Shown: piece by piece, positions 1 to 8,438 of the stretch
Layout of the letters: every line of letters begins with the position of its first letter
Numbering within the stretch: position 1 is the stretch's first letter
Virus genome (UHGV): UHGV-1375844
DNA length: 64,000 bases
Direction: 5' to 3' (one strand)
Source of the DNA: a virus
Notes under the pieces: model-generated
The model's database searches: none
What the model saw: the letters and a program-made list of their open reading frames with translations, nothing else
What the model was told of the DNA's origin: nothing
Program-made: the position numbers and the translations under genes

Positions 1-2225
1 TTGGTCAAAATGCCTATCGCCATGAGATCAATATCACTAAGGTGTTCAATCTCTTTGGCTACAGTGCGCAGGTGCTCGCTGAACCCATCTCCGGCAGCAC
101 ATGGCGCACCGTCACTCATGACCAGCATAATTTTTTTGTCTTCTGTTCGTCCCGAAAAGAGTGAGGCCAGTTGCGCGATACTCTCCCCATCAACGTTGTT
201 GAGTAACGGGAACGTTTCTCCGACGCAACCCATACGAGCGCGGATCTCTGGTGAGTTAGCTTTCTCGTTCCAGTTTTTGATGATAGGCAACATCAGGGCT
301 TCAAAACGCGAAAAACCACGTTTCGACATTGTTCCATGATCAGGGGCGCCGAATGTGGTAAAGCCGGTGATGATATTCGGTACGTTAATACGATCGAGTG
401 CATCAGCGATTGTGTAGGCACTGGCGAGTGCCAGATGAATCTTTCTGCCGCCCATTGAACCTGACAAATCGATTACCTGCTGCACACAGGCGTTAACTGC
501 CTTGTGATCTTCTTTCCGTCGAAATACGCGATCATCCTTCATTGCCAGACGATAAAGACTTGAGCCATGAACACGCCCTCGACGTTGGCCAGGGACAAAC
601 TGCACACGATTACGACTGGCGATCGCCCGTTCCAAATCTTTGGCCAGGGTTGAAGACACTCCGGCTGAAAGGTGTTCTTCAACCTGCAATTCAAACAGTT
701 TTCGTCCCTCTGGAACCATACGATAGCGATCAACAGGAGAGTGCATAGGGATTGCGCCAAAAACCTTTTTGGCCCGCTTGATATGCTCTTCCGCCTCGTC
801 AATTGGGCCGATGAAATCGTAAGAGCGGTCATACGGACGGTAATCAGAAAGAGAGCCGCTCATCAGCTCTTTGCTGATGGTTTCCGACAGCGCATCCTCA
901 GTCATTTCATCGGTACCGTCTTCTATTTCATCAAGCGCCTTCAGTGCATCTTCCAGCGTCATTCCGTCTGTTTCTGCAACGAAGCCTGTGTCACCATCAG
1001 GCGTCTCTTCTGTACCCTCGTCCTTTTCGCTCCCGTAGCTCTCTTCATCTTCTTCGCCGGGCACCCCATCGCCATCGCCAGCTCCACCATGTTCGGCAGT
1101 GTCATCTTCTCCTGACCCATAACCATCGGAATCATCGGCGTCATCTTGAATGCCGTCACCAGGGGCCGGAGACCCATCGCCCTCTGAGCCAGAACCTTCT
1201 TCATTTGCAGAATCCGGTGGTGTGGTGCTGCCGTCTTCGTCGGTATCTGGGTGTTCTCCGTGTTCTTCTTTACCTGTTTCTGAAGAATCATTACTTGTAT
1301 CACTTATGTCTTTATCGTCAGTAGGTAAGTCCTTATCTAATAAATCAGGCGAATCAGAATCACCAGAATCGCGATCTTTGGCTTCTTCTTCTTTGTCTCC
1401 GCCTTCTTCTTTCCGCCCTGGTGTGGCTTCTTCACGGCTGGGTTTTTCTGGCGCTTCAGGTTTATCTCCAGACTCATCATCGCGCTTGGAGGGCTTCTTT
1501 GCAGAAGATTTCATTTCAGGAAGTTTACCTTCTGGTTTTTCCTTCATGTCTTTCATGATCTGCGCAATAGCCGCGGCAACTTTGACGCAGTCTTCAGTAC
1601 TCGACATGTTGCGAACGGCAGCGTCGATACCGTGTTCTTTAAGCAGGGCGACGGGTTTTGAGATGTAATGCCAGTTATCTTCCATAAACTCGACGAAAGG
1701 GCTTTGGCCATCCCAGGCTCTGACTACAGGGCACAGGAAAAACTTCAGAAACAGATCTCGCTGATCCCCGCGACAGATAGATACTGCCTCGACTACTTTC
1801 GTCTTAAAGTATTTGTCGATAATGAGGTTTTGGGTTGCCAGAAGGTTACGACGAGTCCCATTAAAAACCTGCCCCATCCTGCGTTCGATAAAGACATCTT
1901 CCAGGGCATTCCAGAGACCTGTAGATGGCGCTTTTCCTTTCTCGCGCATCTTCATGGCGACCTTCGGATCAGTAAAAAGGATATGGGCTACCTCATGGTC
2001 TAGAAAGCCGCGTACCGCGTTCATCAGCGTAGGTGTTGCATCATCAGGTATGGATGGTATGTTGACCAACACCGGCTCTCCACGCTTGTTGTAGCGTACA
2101 AATGCTTCATTACCACGCTCCGCTACAGGGATGCTTTTTCCGGAAAGCATGGCGACTACTCGTTTAACGCAATCGCGAAAGTCCTGTACCTCTTTCAGTA
2201 CAGCTTTAGAAGATGCTTTAGACAT
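1..2225 (-). CDS. VWA-domain protein, CobT-like; C-terminal end lies beyond the window start
   Basis: Uninterrupted minus-strand frame from ATG at 2225 (MSKASSKAVLKEVQDF...) to the window edge, absent from the ORF track because it has no in-window stop; MIDAS-like DLSGSMGG motif; ~150-aa D/E/G/S-rich acidic linker; AAGGA 8 nt upstream of the ATG. Confidence 0.6.
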   Translation of the reverse strand, partial: MSKASSKAVLKEVQDFRDCVKRVVAMLSGKSIPVAERGNEAFVRYNKRGEPVLVNIPSIPDDATPTLMNAVRGFLDHEVAHILFTDPKVAMKMREKGKAPSTGLWNALEDVFIERRMGQVFNGTRRNLLATQNLIIDKYFKTKVVEAVSICRGDQRDLFLKFFLCPVVRAWDGQSPFVEFMEDNWHYISKPVALLKEHGIDAAVRNMSSTEDCVKVAAAIAQIMKDMKEKPEGKLPEMKSSAKKPSKRDDESGDKPEAPEKPSREEATPGRKEEGGDKEEEAKDRDSGDSDSPDLLDKDLPTDDKDISDTSNDSSETGKEEHGEHPDTDEDGSTTPPDSANEEGSGSEGDGSPAPGDGIQDDADDSDGYGSGEDDTAEHGGAGDGDGVPGEEDEESYGSEKDEGTEETPDGDTGFVAETDGMTLEDALKALDEIEDGTDEMTEDALSETISKELMSGSLSDYRPYDRSYDFIGPIDEAEEHIKRAKKVFGAIPMHSPVDRYRMVPEGRKLFELQVEEHLSAGVSSTLAKDLERAIASRNRVQFVPGQRRGRVHGSSLYRLAMKDDRVFRRKEDHKAVNACVQQVIDLSGSMGGRKIHLALASAYTIADALDRINVPNIITGFTTFGAPDHGTMSKRGFSRFEALMLPIIKNWNEKANSPEIRARMGCVGETFPLLNNVDGESIAQLASLFSGRTEDKKIMLVMSDGAPCAAGDGFSEHLRTVAKEIEHLSDIDLMAIGILT

Positions 2226-2243
2226 TAGAATTTCCTTGTTTTT

Positions 2244-2264
2244 AAAACAATTTGTTTTCTGATG
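2244..2264 (-). promoter_or_regulatory. Conserved promoter-proximal near-palindrome (AAACAATTTGTTTTCT family), copy 1, upstream of the VWA gene
   Basis: Plus-strand aaaacaatttgttttctgatg lies between a GATACA -10-like hexamer and the RBS of the gene starting at 2225; same motif at 8 other gene starts. Confidence 0.45.
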
Positions 2265-2339
2265 TGTGAAATGTATCACTGTACGAACAGGCCGCTAAAC
2301 TGTTCGTACAGGTCAACTTAGGGGATCAGGGAAGGACGT

Positions 2340-2561
2340 TTAGTTCGTTCTGACTGCTAAGGAGCCGCAGCCGGTATTGATGAGTGTGAAGCGCTTATCA
2401 CAAAGTTCGAAGGTAAAGGCGGTGGCGTCACCCATATCGAGGGAAATCTGTTTTGCTGGAAGGTCGGCTAGGATTGCCGCCACCTTTTCCTCGTGCAAAG
2501 AGAAAATATGGCCAACTTCAAGTTTGTTCAAATTACAGGCTATTTTTTCCATTTCATTCAT
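2340..2561 (-). CDS. Hypothetical small protein (73 aa)
   Basis: ORF track; divergent from the HTH gene across an AT-rich intergenic region (2562-2814); followed by a 10-bp-stem hairpin at 2281-2313. Confidence 0.35.
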   Translation of the reverse strand: MNEMEKIACNLNKLEVGHIFSLHEEKVAAILADLPAKQISLDMGDATAFTFELCDKRFTLINTGCGSLAVRTN

Positions 2562-2814
2562 CCAACTACAACGGTTTCTAAACGTTTCTGAATACTACTA
2601 CCTATTGTATCAATAAGGAATATTTTCATATCAGATGTTTCTGCTTGCGTGACAATGAAAATGCAAATCATTATTCGCTTAAGTCTTGCCCTGTCTGGGA
2701 TTTAAGAGCATAATGTGCCGCCAACAAATGATAGATAAGTCTTTACAACCCTGACCTTTGATGTAATATCAGTAAGCACTTACCAGAGACAAATAAAACA
2801 CGCAGGGTTTAATC

Positions 2815-3195
2815 ATGGCTACCAATGAAACAAAACAAGGTCGCTACGCCGCCTATATCGACTCTCTCATCACCATTTCTCCAAAAAGTCAGGCCACTAT
2901 TGCTAAGGAAATTGGGTACAAAAACCCCAATAATCTATCGCTTATCAAAAGTGGCAAAATTCCTCTGCCGGTGGACAAGGTTCGCCCGTTGGCCAACTCT
3001 TTGGATGCTGATCCAGTACGTCTCATGCTCATGGTTCTCGAAGAGCGTCACCCTGAGCTTCTTGAGTTCTTCCGTGATGAAGGCACAGCTCCGCTTTCCC
3101 AAGACGAAAAACAGGTATTGGATGCTTTTCGTAAGCGTTTCGATGGTCAACAAGGTGCTTCAGAACAGGTCGTCGAGGCCATCAAGTCAATGTGA
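2815..3195 (+). CDS. Putative HTH transcriptional regulator (candidate lysogeny-switch protein)
   Basis: N-terminal segment SQATIAKEIGYKNPNNLSLIKSGK resembles an XRE-type helix-turn-helix; divergent promoter region with 2340..2561; convergent with and adjacent to the integrase; variant of the intergenic palindrome (agtaagcacttac, 2771-2783) upstream. Confidence 0.5.
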   Translation: MATNETKQGRYAAYIDSLITISPKSQATIAKEIGYKNPNNLSLIKSGKIPLPVDKVRPLANSLDADPVRLMLMVLEERHPELLEFFRDEGTAPLSQDEKQVLDAFRKRFDGQQGASEQVVEAIKSM

Positions 3196-4293
3196 GAAAT
3201 TTATACGAATAAGCTCTGTCGCTAGACGATCTCCCTTGAAATTATGGTCTATCTCGTCTAAATCTGGTTGTTCTACGATGGATGCGATGTACGCCGAAAA
3301 TTTACATAAGGCGTCTCGCATTTCATCCATATAGTCGTGACGGTCGTAAACCCGATCTATACCTTCAAGGCTATGGTTCATGATTTTACGAGAGACTTCC
3401 TGATTAATACCCAGGGCAGGGAAATAGCTACGCGCAGTTCTTCGCAGATCGCGTGGGGTGAAAACCTCAACCTCCATCAACTCCGGACGTTCCAAAATCC
3501 TCCGGAGCGCCTGTGATATGGCTACTTTAGACATTGGCATGTCCTTATCGCGTTTCTTGTTTGAGGGCACCAGCCACTGGCTGTCTTTCCCATATTTAAA
3601 CAGTTCCTCGACGCACTTCCTCATCAGCGGGCTTAACGGTAGAGCATGTTGCCTGGCCGATTTATTACGTGTGCCTTGATTCCATACATCACGTTGAAGG
3701 TTGAACTCACTCTTCTTGGCCCGGAGCACTTCATCGGGTCGCCTGGCAGCCACGAGACATAATCTGGCCGCCCACTTTGTCCCTTCGCATACGTTGAAAT
3801 AATCCCAGACGTTCCAAAAAACCCAAACTTCGGCGTCCGTTAGCTTCCGTTCCCGGGGCGTAGGTTTGGCGCCACCAGCGACTTTGTTGAGCGACATATC
3901 GTTCAACGGCGACGTTTCGATGACCCCCTGGAAGGCGCACCAGCCCAAAAACTGCTTCATCAGGGAAAACACACGCCTGCCCATGACGATCTTCCCTTCC
4001 AGAATGAGCGGGTTCACCAGCTGGTTGACGAGAACCCTACTAATGTCACTTACTTTTACATCAGAGATAAAAGGTAAAACATGTATCAAAACACAATGGA
4101 CGGCGATCTCCGGTCGGCGTCTTGTTATGAGTAAAGATAAGCGAGTGAATAACAAGAAGGCATCTGAAAACTTCATGTCGCCACTTACCAGAGAGGCTGC
4201 CATCGCATTCATTTGCGAAGCCCGTTCCAGAAACTCAATCGCTTCTCGTGAGGTGTTTTCGGCTGCGCGTGCTCGATCAAACGAATTTTTCAT
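3187..4293 (-). CDS. int: Tyrosine recombinase / phage integrase (P4-like)
   Basis: C-terminal FTPRDLRRTARSY ... NHSLEGIDRVYDRHDY matches the box II / catalytic Tyr region of tyrosine integrases, but with Arg where the first box II His is usual; 368 aa. Confidence 0.75.
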   Translation of the reverse strand: MKNSFDRARAAENTSREAIEFLERASQMNAMAASLVSGDMKFSDAFLLFTRLSLLITRRRPEIAVHCVLIHVLPFISDVKVSDISRVLVNQLVNPLILEGKIVMGRRVFSLMKQFLGWCAFQGVIETSPLNDMSLNKVAGGAKPTPRERKLTDAEVWVFWNVWDYFNVCEGTKWAARLCLVAARRPDEVLRAKKSEFNLQRDVWNQGTRNKSARQHALPLSPLMRKCVEELFKYGKDSQWLVPSNKKRDKDMPMSKVAISQALRRILERPELMEVEVFTPRDLRRTARSYFPALGINQEVSRKIMNHSLEGIDRVYDRHDYMDEMRDALCKFSAYIASIVEQPDLDEIDHNFKGDRLATELIRINFSH

Positions 4294-4559
4294 AGTCCAA
4301 TCACTTAGTTAGCCGTAACACTGTATGTATAAACAGTATATTAGGCATTGTTTCTTATGGGATCAAGCCTAACGTTACAGTGATTTTACCAATGATTCCA
4401 TACTTAATAGGTATGGAATCATTAGAGGGCATTTTTTTGAATTTTTACCAGTATTTGGGGGGAGAGATTATGGAAACAGTGACCAGTTGCAGAAACGATT
4501 AAAAAAGAGTGGCTAAGCGCGGTAAGCCCAAACCGAATGAAGAGTTACCGCGCGAAATT

Positions 4560-5183
4560 TTAAAAATCTTCCGCTTGTTCGTACCAGTCGCGTTCGGTAT
4601 CCGATTCTATGCGAGTAATTTCAAAATCCTCATCAATAAAATTCCACTTTTCATCACGCCATGACAAACGAACTTTGGCCTCTACATCAAACTCTGTACC
4701 GGAATAAACATGGTCAGGCAGCTGATCGCCCAAATAGTTGAATGCCACCTGCATGTCAAGAATACCCTTTGTTTCATCGTAAGCAGTATCGAGTACCGTT
4801 AGATCATCAATGACGAAACCTTCGGCGTTCGTGGTTGCGATATCTGCTGCTAACTCGTCATCCACGGCCATTTCAAGAGAGAGAAAGGGGCCATTATGAT
4901 AGATAGCTTCTTCGAAATTATTGTCACCAAAAGCGGCCATTAACAAACGAGACTCAAGCGGCGTTTCTTTGGAAACCTTAGTAAGCTCATGATAATTAGA
5001 GAAGTTCGAGTTTTTGGCGATGATCTCTAATGCCTGAGAATGCGTGAGAGAAACATCTGAGCGAGCCAGTTTTTTGGCTTTGGTTTTGATGAGTTCAAGA
5101 CAAGAATATTGTGACATGGCCGTTCTCCAAATTTCTGACGCTTTTGGAAACCGATAGCCTGCTAACCGGACTCCGCGCGTCAC
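4560..5183 (-). CDS. Hypothetical acidic protein (likely start at internal Met, MSQYSCLELIKTK)
   Basis: ORF track; no recognisable motif. Confidence 0.45.
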   Translation of the reverse strand: MTRGVRLAGYRFPKASEIWRTAMSQYSCLELIKTKAKKLARSDVSLTHSQALEIIAKNSNFSNYHELTKVSKETPLESRLLMAAFGDNNFEEAIYHNGPFLSLEMAVDDELAADIATTNAEGFVIDDLTVLDTAYDETKGILDMQVAFNYLGDQLPDHVYSGTEFDVEAKVRLSWRDEKWNFIDEDFEITRIESDTERDWYEQAEDF

Positions 5184-5385
5184 AAATGTGGGCGAGCCAA
5201 GTATTTTAAGGGTAAATCATGATGGGCTATTGCTTCGCGAGACAGGCGCCAGGTGACCATCACCACCTGGCGTCATAATGGCAAATTCATCTAATTAAGT
5301 CAAACTGAGCATCTCTGGTGCGGGTTGATCCAAAAAGATTGCCGTATAAATTACTATTACTGAACGTGGCTAATGTGGGCCTTTT

Positions 5386-5634
5386 TCATAGCGTACTCAC
5401 CAGTGCCGCAAATTCTGTATAACCCCCGATAGGCTCACCATTTACGAACACCTGCGGTATGGTTTCCACCGGCTTGCCAACCAGGTCGCTCAACTTCTCT
5501 TTGTCGATCCCGGCCGCCATGATGTCAATGTATTCGTAATCACCAAAGCCGTGGCCCTGCAGCTGCTTCGCCAGCTCGACCGCACGTTTGCAGTATGAGC
5601 AATTATCGCGTCCGTAGATAACGACCTTCATCAC
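5386..5634 (-). CDS. Glutaredoxin (NrdH/Grx-like)
   Basis: 82 aa; VVIYGRDNCSYCKRA CxxC active site and TIPQVFVNGEPIGGYTEF glutaredoxin signature. Confidence 0.8.
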   Translation of the reverse strand: MMKVVIYGRDNCSYCKRAVELAKQLQGHGFGDYEYIDIMAAGIDKEKLSDLVGKPVETIPQVFVNGEPIGGYTEFAALVSTL

Positions 5635-5996
5635 TTCACCTCGTGCAGCTGCTGCTTGAGAAGATAGCCTTCCAGGGGCCAGATTTTGGCAATCGCGTTC
5701 TGGCGTGCAATTTTACGTCCGATCTCCGGATCAAAGTTCTCCGGGCTGGCGCACGCAGACTCGCCAGTTACCGTGTAGCCGTTCTCCAGCACAAGAACGC
5801 AGAAGGTCAGCAGTTCGAGTGATTGCGGGGCCGGCTCAGGCTCTTCCTGCTTCAGCCACAACGGTGAGCTGCGATATCCGTCCGCGCCGGTAAAGTAAAA
5901 CTCGCCTGAGATAACGGCTTCGATGCGTTCCGGGGTAACACGCGCGGCCGTTTTGCCTTTGGCCACGATCTCTTTCTCGATATCCATATCGGTCAT
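5631..5996 (-). CDS. Gp49-like phage protein (PF13876-like)
   Basis: 121 aa; segment VTGESACASPENFDPEIGRKIARQNAIAKIWPLEGY resembles the N4 gp49 / Sf6 gp66 family as I recall it; 4-nt overlap with the glutaredoxin gene. Confidence 0.45.
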   Translation of the reverse strand: MTDMDIEKEIVAKGKTAARVTPERIEAVISGEFYFTGADGYRSSPLWLKQEEPEPAPQSLELLTFCVLVLENGYTVTGESACASPENFDPEIGRKIARQNAIAKIWPLEGYLLKQQLHEVK

Positions 5997-6011
5997 TTTG
6001 GTTTCCTTACG

Positions 6012-6242
6012 TTAAAAACGAGCAATCCGGGTACGAAGAATCAGCTCATAGGCTTTCATCGCGTCCAGCTGCTTAATGAGCATGTTGCGGTCGACATCAG
6101 GGAGACGACTAAAAATCTCGGTGGCTGTGAAGCACTCCAGCTTGAAAATACGGCGCGACAGATCTTCCTGTTCCTCTATCACGCGCTGCTGGTGAGGCAG
6201 ATATTCTTTGGTCACGCTTATCTCCTTATTGGTAGGCTTCAA
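6012..6242 (-). CDS. Hypothetical small protein (76 aa)
   Basis: ORF track; overlaps the end of the PhoH gene by 17 nt. Confidence 0.4.
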   Translation of the reverse strand: MKPTNKEISVTKEYLPHQQRVIEEQEDLSRRIFKLECFTATEIFSRLPDVDRNMLIKQLDAMKAYELILRTRIARF

Positions 6243-6999
6243 GCGCTATTTTGCATAACTCAGACCGTACACAGTCCTCGCTCTCAAACTCAATCCGACC
6301 AACATATTCAGACGGCTTAAAGCGCTCCATAGCGTCTTCCAGCCCGGATTTGACGCTGCCAGGAAGATCGCATTGGGTGATGTCCCCGTTAACGATAACC
6401 GTGACGTTTTCTCCCATACGGGTCAGGAACATTTTCATTTGTGACGCTGTCACGTTTTGAGCTTCATCCAGAATCACCACAGCGTTTTCGAAAGTGCGCC
6501 CACGCATGTAAGCGAAGGGGGCAATCTCCACTTTGGCCACCTCTGGCTTTAAGTAGTATTCGAGAAACGAGCCACCCAGACGCTTCTGTAGCACGTCATA
6601 GACTGGCCGGAAGAACGGAGCGAACTTCTCGCTCATGTCGCCCGGAAGAAAGCCCAGATCTTCGTCTGCTTGCAATACCGGCCGAGTCACGATGATCTTG
6701 TCTACTTCCTTATTAAGTAGACGCTGCGCTGCAACGGCCGCGGCCAGGTACGTTTTACCGCAGCCAGCTTCGCCAGTGGCGAACGTTAGCGTTTTGGTAT
6801 CGAGGGAGATGAGATAGTGGGCCTGGGCCTCGTTTCGCGCTTCGAGAGGAGAGTTGTCGCGCTTCGGTTTCGGAGGCAGAGCAGGGGCGGCAGCCAGTTC
6901 GTCAACAATGATTGTGTCAATTTCATAGCCACGAATACGTGATTTTGACTTCAGCGCCTGGCGAGCTGCGCGACGCGCCTGTTTACGTTTGTTTCCCAT
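6226..6999 (-). CDS. phoH: PhoH-like ATPase
   Basis: Walker A GEAGCGKTYLAAAVAA and downstream PhoH-like motifs; start re-placed at the internal ATG at 6999 (MGNKRKQARR) which has AGGA 6 nt upstream. Confidence 0.85.
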   Translation of the reverse strand: MGNKRKQARRAARQALKSKSRIRGYEIDTIIVDELAAAPALPPKPKRDNSPLEARNEAQAHYLISLDTKTLTFATGEAGCGKTYLAAAVAAQRLLNKEVDKIIVTRPVLQADEDLGFLPGDMSEKFAPFFRPVYDVLQKRLGGSFLEYYLKPEVAKVEIAPFAYMRGRTFENAVVILDEAQNVTASQMKMFLTRMGENVTVIVNGDITQCDLPGSVKSGLEDAMERFKPSEYVGRIEFESEDCVRSELCKIALEAYQ

Positions 7000-7066: not shown

Positions 7067-7205
7067 TTATCGTGGCTTTGTGCTAGGTTAAAACAGCTTT
7101 GGGGAGCTGGTGCGCTTAAGGCCTTCCAGAAAACTCAAACTAGCTGAAATAGTAGGGTCAATTAGGTATCATTCCTTTTCAAATTTAACCAAAGACTCTT
7201 ATAAA

Positions 7206-8438
7206 ATGCCTGCTTTGTTAATTCTCATAATTGGGACATTGATGATTATTTTCTGGGATGTGATTAAGGAAAACGTAGAGGTTATAGGTACGCTTGCCAC
7301 TTCACTTGCCTTTTTTGCTACTGCCTGGGCTGCTTACGAGGCAAGGCATAGTGCAAAGGCGGCAATGAAGGCGACCCAGCTGACGGCTGATTCACTTCTT
7401 GAAATGAAAAAAGCCTCTTTTAAGGAGTGGTACGGCATTTTACTTGAACAGCATAATAAATTACTTGAGGATGTTAATAAGACCTTATTGGATGACAATG
7501 AACTTAATACCAGGTTGAATATTAATGTCATAAGAGGTATTTATTATCACGTAACCAAAAATCCTGCTTACATTAAGTATATTAATCACATAATTTTAAT
7601 CCTGAATTATGTAGATAAAGACTTTTATCTGCCGTCCTCGGCGGAAAATGAAAAGAGATCTTATATAGAACAGTTGCGCAACAGCATTAGCCCAAAAGTA
7701 AGCCTGCTGATTGCTATTTTTGGCCTTAATATCGACAATAATAAAACTTATGATGCAAAGAAACTTTACAACCTTCTAAGCAAATATAACTTTTTTGAAA
7801 ATGAGCTATTTTTTGAAGTTGCAATATCAAAAGTTCATTACTTAGACACTTATGTCGCCGAGATATTTGACAAAGAATACCGAAAAGACGTTGAATTTTA
7901 TGTTGATGAAACGGTTTGTGGTCGTGCGCTCTCTTTTATCAATACGACATGCCGACACCATAGGATTACTTTCGCAGTTCAGTGGTCTTACAACAACCCC
8001 TGCCAAAAGCATTTGCTGAAAAGATTCAATGACCTACCTATGCACATGAGAAACGTCATTGGGCTGAACATGGAAAAAGCAGCCGAGAAAGTGGCTACGT
8101 TTAATTCTGAGTTGCCTGGTTTTGTCGGCTGGGAAATTAAGATTGCTAATAATAAGGTGAGAGTAATTAAGGATGAAAAAGAACTGAAAAGGCTAATAAA
8201 GCTTTACTATAAATACCCCTTTGACCCTCGACAAACTGGTATCGTGTTAACCAATGGTTTCACCAATAGATTCGCCGATGAGATTAGGAATAGTATGTCT
8301 AGCTATGCTTTACATAAAGCCTATCTAGAACTCAGCTCTAATCCGAACAAAGATCAGGTAATTGATGAGATTGTGTCAGAGGTTGAAAAAATGGTCGATA
8401 AATTTAAAACAGAACTTAATTCTTTCTGCTTTAACTGA
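7206..8438 (+). CDS. Hypothetical membrane-anchored protein, AT-rich moron
   Basis: Only plus-strand gene in a minus-strand block; markedly AT-rich, K/N/I/Y-rich; N-terminal hydrophobic helix (PALLILIIGTLMIIFW); own terminator; ORF track begins at GTG 7110, first ATG at 7206, no clear SD. Confidence 0.55.
   Translation: MPALLILIIGTLMIIFWDVIKENVEVIGTLATSLAFFATAWAAYEARHSAKAAMKATQLTADSLLEMKKASFKEWYGILLEQHNKLLEDVNKTLLDDNELNTRLNINVIRGIYYHVTKNPAYIKYINHIILILNYVDKDFYLPSSAENEKRSYIEQLRNSISPKVSLLIAIFGLNIDNNKTYDAKKLYNLLSKYNFFENELFFEVAISKVHYLDTYVAEIFDKEYRKDVEFYVDETVCGRALSFINTTCRHHRITFAVQWSYNNPCQKHLLKRFNDLPMHMRNVIGLNMEKAAEKVATFNSELPGFVGWEIKIANNKVRVIKDEKELKRLIKLYYKYPFDPRQTGIVLTNGFTNRFADEIRNSMSSYALHKAYLELSSNPNKDQVIDEIVSEVEKMVDKFKTELNSFCFN

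Follow-up and report, generated by a model that had tools for sequence, protein, structure and literature searches.

We analyzed a 64,000-nucleotide stretch of viral DNA (UHGV virus genome UHGV-1375844; its full length is referred to as the window) that begins inside a CobT-like open reading frame (ORF). We suggest that the product of this ORF is the adaptor in a phage-type CobS/CobT-like machine encoded by two genes, in which a MoxR-class AAA+ ATPase and a VWA-MIDAS protein act together to remodel a client other than CobN, with a role early in infection or during the replication phase. We hold this reading with moderate confidence. By analogy to solved systems of this class, the protein is most likely the adaptor of an ATP-driven remodelling, and possibly proteolytic, machine. 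The phage-type adaptor differs from genuine CobT in that it retains a protease-like metal site that CobT has lost.

The CobT-like ORF is on the minus strand, starts with an ATG at positions 2223-2225 and is open to window base 3, where the end of the window truncates it after 741 codons. In the Salmonella enterica plasmid pSA20094620.2, the complete product is 774 amino acids (aa) long, and all 741 residues encoded in the window are identical to it. This 774-aa sequence is 100% identical to an NCBI entry (P0023) that is labelled “porphyrin biosynthesis protein” and present on 63 contigs, while close relatives carry the NCBI name “cobaltochelatase CobT-related protein”. The protein matches phrog_1576 (PHROG 1576) from end to end (E-value 0, 1065 bits; aa 7-773 against profile positions 1-728 of 729). 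It also matches PF06213 (CobT) over aa 11-290 (E 2e-32, 113 bits against a gathering cut-off of 26.1) and PF11775 (CobT_C, VWA) over aa 567-774 (288 bits for the part encoded in the window; 348 bits and E 3.5e-104 for the full-length protein; cut-off 21). The CobT-like gene is an ordinary, previously annotated member of its family; it is on record as a core gene of phage-plasmids of the SSU5/pHCM2 type, and its architecture is also known already.

The initial annotation described a CobT-like VWA protein with a MIDAS-type DxSxS motif, and both parts of this description are borne out. In addition to the Pfam matches, the VWA domain of solved CobT was matched at E 2e-16, and the DLSGS motif at aa 586-590 is completed by N677 and D705, such that all five MIDAS residues (D586, S588, S590, N677 and D705) align with D422, S424, S426, N518 and D546 of solved CobT. 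In a full-length AlphaFold model built from a 107-sequence alignment, aa 541-773 are predicted with confidence as alternating strands and helices forming an alpha/beta VWA core, with a predicted local distance difference test score (pLDDT) that is mostly >90. Searching with the C-terminal domain model, Foldseek gave as best matches the VWA domain of NorD in NorQD complexes (E 3e-8) and the MIDAS domain of MDN1 (midasin; E 2e-7), followed by integrin I and anthrax-receptor VWA domains. Ahead of the core, a segment aligned to the “shaft” of CobT has conserved G546, G550, L557 and F568; judging from this alignment, aa ~539-578 would be the equivalent of the shaft that enters the CobS ring.

The AAA+ partner that had been expected just beyond the window start is present in the near-identical plasmid pSA20094620.2 as well as in pHCM2 and SSU5; it lies transcriptionally downstream, not upstream, of the CobT-like gene. 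In all three elements, a 411-aa AAA_5 (CobS-like) protein is encoded 96-97 nt after the CobT-like gene and dnaE is next. This partner matches PHROG 249; among solved structures, CobS is its best relative (E 9e-25), with midasin, CbbQ and NorQ ranking behind. An AAA_5 gene is immediately adjacent also in Rhizobium, Pseudomonas and Vibrio phages and in three metagenomic relatives. As a side observation, the partner has ~100 extra N-terminal residues relative to canonical CobS, and this extension holds a Cys/His cluster (C18-x2-C21, H26/H27, H31 and C37) that is zinc ribbon/finger-like.

The order CobT-like, CobS-like and then DnaE recurs in SSU5-type elements and in Rhizobium and Pseudomonas phages. 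Similarly, three distant metagenomic/prophage relatives have the order CobT-like, AAA_5, zero to two small ORFs and DnaE, with gp32 following DnaE in two of the three, while in the Vibrio phage ICP2 the pair adjoins primase and helicase genes. The cobT-like gene precedes the cobS-like gene in SSU5-type elements, in the Rhizobium and Pseudomonas phages and in ICP2; the canonical Shinella locus (L008:1358-4352) and the Roseobacter phage CRP-810 have cobS first and cobT second. Because the conserved position of the pair is beside ligase, dnaE, gp32 and primase genes, we favor a role early in infection or in the replication phase over a role in capsid or tail assembly.

Neither protein can be classed as an orthologue of CobT or CobS. 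The CobT-like protein scores 68.7 bits against TIGR01651, for which the equivalog cut-off is 759.05, and only aa 383-739 match; for the CobS-like partner encoded in pSA20094620.2, the score against TIGR01650 is 82 bits (cut-off 558.55). By comparison, Shinella CobT and CobS reach 1141.7 and 651.5 bits, respectively, against the same two models and cut-offs. CobNST belongs to the aerobic B12 pathway, while Salmonella uses the anaerobic route without CobNST, and in E. coli the whole pathway including heterologous cobN/S/T must be supplied (PMC6249242). Therefore, the client is not expected to be CobN, nor the job of the pair to be cobalt insertion. In the 70 kb of the plasmid that were inspected, the annotation includes no CobN gene. 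Thus, the “porphyrin/cobalamin” label for these phage-plasmids is probably wrong.

The N-terminal domain is modelled with a pLDDT of 93.9. In the model, a helix is followed by a three-stranded sheet (aa 34-56), a helix carrying an HExxH motif (aa 65-84), a helix with conserved glutamates and further helices; as predicted, this order of elements is that of small gluzincins. An exhaustive search with aa 1-230 gave 1010 cluster representatives, and the best 150 of these included 125 full-length proteins that are 30-45% identical to the query. Among these 125 full-length representatives, HE[VI][AG]H is present at the same position in 123 and DxSxS in all. In the alignments, G73, D76, E78, E109, E114, G123 and R169 are invariant, H77, H81, N106 and D110 are conserved to 90% or more, and in one alignment (A3) the HExxH motif is itself invariant. 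The motif is also found in the homologues from SSU5, pHCM2 and from Rhizobium, Roseobacter, Vibrio (ICP2) and Gordonia phages. By contrast, HExxH is missing from all 120 representatives of the canonical CobT N-domain, although both glutamates are kept; at the aligned site, canonical CobT has D-[SA]-x-[AS]-L-[RK]. Canonical CobT was not recovered when PDB sequences were searched with a profile of the N-domain. Homology to the canonical CobT N-domain was therefore shown by a profile-profile comparison (E 3.5e-5 over 133 columns), in which GFLDHEVAH of the phage type is aligned to RGLGDSMALR.

Even highly diverged relatives have kept the zincin motif, which makes zinc binding by the N-domain probable; the domain may also cleave or process a client. 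The retained zincin site would face the position at which the client is expected and, thus, suggests a putative metal-dependent processing of the client. The cyanophage homologue is often annotated as “peptidase”, and PHROG 459 (“peptidase”) gave a weak match across the HExxH region. A Foldseek search with the N-domain against the PDB gave nothing significant, and there was no significant sequence or structure match to any peptidase family. The profile of the N-domain gave one borderline match in the PDB, i.e. the anti-CRISPR protein AcrIIA26 (9zq6_B, E 0.0013); this match covers the helix with LNxVEDxFIE...G..N (window 1866-1950, aa ~93-120) and could be due to chance or to a shared motif.

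The two folded domains are connected by an acidic linker. The initial annotation noted a ~150-aa acidic segment at ~900-1400, and this segment is real but larger, with a net charge of -59 across aa 231-460 (window 846-1535). In the 127-aa acidic core, 46 D+E stand against 4 K+R. The linker is predicted to be disordered, with pLDDT <50 over aa 233-415, and in the full-length model the acidic segment joining it to the C-terminal domain has helices at aa 424-432 and 442-456. The description of the linker as exceptionally long did not hold. Measured in the same way for all proteins, the low-hydrophobicity run is 199 aa (aa 225-423) in this protein, 101 aa in canonical Shinella CobT and 285 aa in the Rhizobium phage homologue, while the median of the 125 full-length family representatives is 169 aa (range 36-297). 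Thus, this linker is approximately twice the canonical length but, within its family, ranks at the 66th percentile, with a net charge at the family median; an acidic linker of this kind is characteristic of the family rather than unusual. Between close relatives, every indel is inside the linker, in which identity is 56-62% compared to 86-90% in the flanking domains. Tandem Repeats Finder detected no repeat array in the linker DNA but merely one trivial 15-nt hexamer run, so that such an array does not account for the variation in length. In other words, the linker behaves as a fast-evolving disordered tether, whose composition is conserved while its sequence is not.

Table 1. Features of the CobT-like gene, the encoded protein and the adjoining region; coordinates refer to the window except for the CobS-like partner.
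Feature	Coordinates	Strand	Remarks
CobT-like coding sequence	1..2225	-	741 of 774 codons; final 33 codons and stop codon past the window start
N-terminal domain, aa 1-230	1536..2225	-	predicted M48C-like zincin fold (PF06213 CobT)
HEVAH (H77-E78-V-A-H81)	1983..1997	-	zincin HExxH; on helix 65-84
Helix aa 100-120 with N106, E109, D110, E114	1866..1928	-	candidate “glutamate helix” for the third metal ligand
Disordered linker, aa 231-422	960..1535	-	first 65 aa mixed K/E; next 127 aa acidic, D/E/G/S/T-rich
Acidic helical segment, aa 423-460	846..959	-	joins linker to C-terminal domain; net charge -10
C-terminal domain	3..845	-	N-terminal extension and VWA core (CobT_C); aa 461-741 in the window, 461-774 in full
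Shaft-aligned segment, ~aa 539-578	492..611	-	aligned to the CobT “shaft” (Q373-R413) of 9uka_G
MIDAS motif DLSGS (D586-L-S588-G-S590)	456..470	-	D586, S588 and S590 invariant
Remaining MIDAS residues N677 (195-197) and D705 (111-113)	111..197	-	at least 90% conserved
Shine-Dalgarno sequence AAGGA	2233..2237	-	7 nt before the ATG; read from the sequence
Perfect 10-bp inverted repeat GTACGAACAG-N9-CTGTTCGTAC	2281..2309	.	56 nt upstream of the CobT-like ATG
CobS-like partner	L001:7569-8804	-	just beyond the window start

These features place the protein next to several known systems. The closest are SSU5 gp049/gp050 and the “porphyrin biosynthesis protein” pair of pHCM2/pMT1 (PHROG 1576 and 249), i.e. 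the same gene in the same synteny of CobT-like, CobS-like and dnaE. The SSU5/pHCM2 proteins are ~88-90% identical to this protein in the two folded domains, and relatives of this type have 720-790 aa and differ only in the length and sequence of the linker. CobT of the CobSTN system (TIGR01651; PDB 9UKA, 21VT and 21VU) follows the same plan, with an M48C-like N-domain, a disordered acidic linker, a shaft and a VWA domain with a five-residue MIDAS, and it also has an adjacent CobS-type AAA+ partner. It differs from the protein analyzed here in that it has D-S-M-A-L-R in place of HExxH and a linker of about half the length. The two systems also differ in gene order and in the extended partner, the missing CobN context and the failed equivalog score of the element analyzed here. 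The pair of MoxR and vWA-metallopeptidase proteins that Iyer et al. (2021; PMC7824862) described from T4-like jumbo phages, likened to this one by architecture, has the same domain architecture and two-gene arrangement in a tailed phage; here, however, the neighborhood is one of replication and not morphogenesis. Finally, NorQ/NorD, CbbQ/CbbO and BchI/BchD follow the same logic, i.e. a MoxR-class ATPase ring and a VWA-MIDAS adaptor act on a client. The NorD VWA and the midasin MIDAS domains are the closest solved folds of the C-terminal domain, and the partner matches CbbQ and NorQ. However, the NorD, CbbO and BchD adaptors are without a zincin-like N-domain and the clients in these systems are known metalloenzymes.

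In the solved CobSTN system, the shaft preceding the VWA core enters the CobS ring upon nucleotide binding, while the N-domain of CobT docks on the CobS small subdomain and the linker of ~90 aa is disordered (preprint 10.64898/2026.07.21.739949). The parts that match this system are all present here: the N-domain, the linker, the shaft-aligned segment, the VWA-MIDAS domain and the AAA+ partner. By analogy, we propose a model in which the extension of the C-terminal domain would insert into a hexameric AAA+ ring, while the N-domain would dock on the small subdomain of the ATPase. The linker of ~190-230 aa would be a mere flexible tether that lets both domains bind independently. In this model, the client would be clamped between the N-terminal domain and the C-terminal domain beside the MIDAS site and be remodelled by ATP hydrolysis, and the zincin site of the N-domain may cleave or process the clamped client. 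A bolder version, which we regard as possible but doubtful, is that phage-type CobS/CobT pairs in general are ATP-driven zincin adaptor-proteases, loosely FtsH-like, that process a specific host or phage protein in early infection or during plasmid replication, and that CobT is a catalytically dead descendant or sister of these proteins.

Several observations weigh against an adaptor that processes its client and acts in the replication phase. The synteny with dnaE is absent in the Roseobacter phage CRP-810 and in Gordonia phages and, where present, may have been inherited by a large group of phages from a common ancestor instead of indicating that the functions are coupled; shared ancestry of the modules, therefore, weakens the case for a role in replication. 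Moreover, HExxH is lost in the Pseudomonas phage Nican01 and in P0230 and P0276, while the gene is kept. Because this subclade without HExxH retains the gene, at least some of the function would not require catalysis. Fold-level support for zincin-based processing is modest, and that the hosts are without CobN rests on established knowledge and PMC6249242 and not on a genome search. We also considered DnaE itself as the client, with metal loading of its PHP domain, and set this candidate aside as speculation only; the synteny may be inherited and is absent in ICP2, CRP-810 and the Gordonia phages.

The initial annotation considered the function of such pairs in phages unresolved, and the literature offers two hypotheses. 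One of these was put forward by Iyer et al. (2021; PMC7824862) for T4-like jumbo phages, in which a MoxR AAA+ protein is paired with a vWA protein that carries a metallopeptidase at its N-terminus. Here, the two proteins would serve as chaperone and co-chaperone in virion assembly, folding or assembling structural proteins, which the fused metallopeptidase would process. In line with this idea, an archaeal virus requires a MoxR-vWA pair for tail assembly (PMC7824862), and the conservation of HExxH would fit a processing protease. However, the pair is located among ligase, dnaE, helicase, exonuclease and recombinase genes, and the block from terminase to tail fibre is tens of kb away. This position in a replication module recurs in distant relatives and ICP2. 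Although position is circumstantial evidence, we consider a role in assembly unlikely.

Less probable still is a function in counter-defence or host takeover, in which the machine would degrade or remodel a host defence or replication factor, or in which the acidic linker would be a decoy that mimics nucleic acid. The acidic linker is shared with housekeeping CobT, in which it is a disordered tether. DNA mimicry by the linker was, accordingly, dropped as a leading idea, since the linker of housekeeping CobT is of the same kind and simply disordered. PADLOC, which models defence and not anti-defence systems, gave no match, and the signals for ArdC and AcrIIA26 are at noise level.

The second published proposal, that viral CobS/CobT pairs are auxiliary cobaltochelatases that hijack host CobN (or CobN-like ChlH) to boost cobalamin, e.g. 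for B12-dependent ribonucleotide reduction (PMC8651126), has in its favor the sequence homology to CobT and CobS and the conservation of all the MIDAS residues and of the shaft-aligned segment used in CobSTN, but is highly improbable here, given the equivalog scores, the B12 physiology of Salmonella and E. coli and the plasmid annotation described above, the fact that the gene is common also in Klebsiella, Yersinia, Acinetobacter and V. cholerae elements, and the lack of any role in this proposal for the conserved HExxH that real CobT lacks.

Virome surveys routinely count viral cobS and cobT as cobalamin “auxiliary metabolic genes”. Here, the same pair belongs to the core gene set of enterobacterial phage-plasmids. 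Because Salmonella does not use CobNST, E. coli would need the whole de novo pathway supplied and the pair keeps a protease-type metal site that is lost from true CobT, the metabolic reading is doubtful. If phage-type pairs were indeed zincin adaptor-proteases, then the annotation “cobS/cobT auxiliary metabolic gene” would be wrong in phages, including marine phages. SSU5 in Salmonella, or a relative of SSU5 in E. coli, would offer a tractable system for finding the real client.

Positions 1-2600 of the window are 99.8% identical to pSA20094620.2. Compared to NZ_CP030187.1, the window has only five mismatches up to ~4466, after which an ungapped comparison loses register. We, therefore, rejected the idea that the window is the same molecule as NZ_CP030187.1; rather, it derives from a different SSU5-type element that is a relative of pSA20094620.2. 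The remainder of the window encodes an integrase and PhoH, and the related plasmid record has genes for a ligase and a DnaB-like helicase as well as an entire siphovirus morphogenesis block; together, these genes identify an SSU5/pHCM2-type phage-plasmid. Phage SSU5 and pHCM2 hold the same gene, and by tblastn it is present in 1033 plasmids of PLSDB, those listed being mostly non-mobilizable and about 110 kb in size. The host genera in PLSDB are Klebsiella, Escherichia, Acinetobacter, Enterobacter, Yersinia and Salmonella.

Scans of positions 1-3000 for promoters and terminators gave nothing above chance level. The inverted repeat at 2281-2309 occurs only once in the window (chance expectation, 0 matches), and it is exactly conserved, at the same offset, in pSA20094620.2, pHCM2 and SSU5. 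It may represent an operator or an RNA hairpin of the CobT-like operon. Directly upstream of the CobT-like gene and on the same strand, a 73-aa ORF (window 2340-2561, minus strand; PHROG 2627) is present. In SSU5, a tRNA-Asn gene takes the place of this 73-aa gene, yet the inverted repeat is kept. The 73-aa ORF of the window may be part of the same operon as the CobT-like gene, and an ORF of equal length occupies the corresponding position in L014/L015, a distant relative of this module. Positions 1-6900 of this relative encode HsdR (type I restriction), a D12-class methyltransferase, Tad2-like and Acb2/Tad1-hairpin proteins and a Phd/ParE pair, and these genes are just upstream of the same block of integrase, 73-aa ORF and CobT-like gene. 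In the element to which the window belongs, the variable region begins just past the integrase (~4466 onward). A 442-aa ORF (window 7110-8438, plus strand), located in a stretch over which the window and its closest plasmid do not keep register, has a sub-threshold match to putAbiC (PF16872, 18.2 bits against a cut-off of 22) and may be an accessory defence gene.

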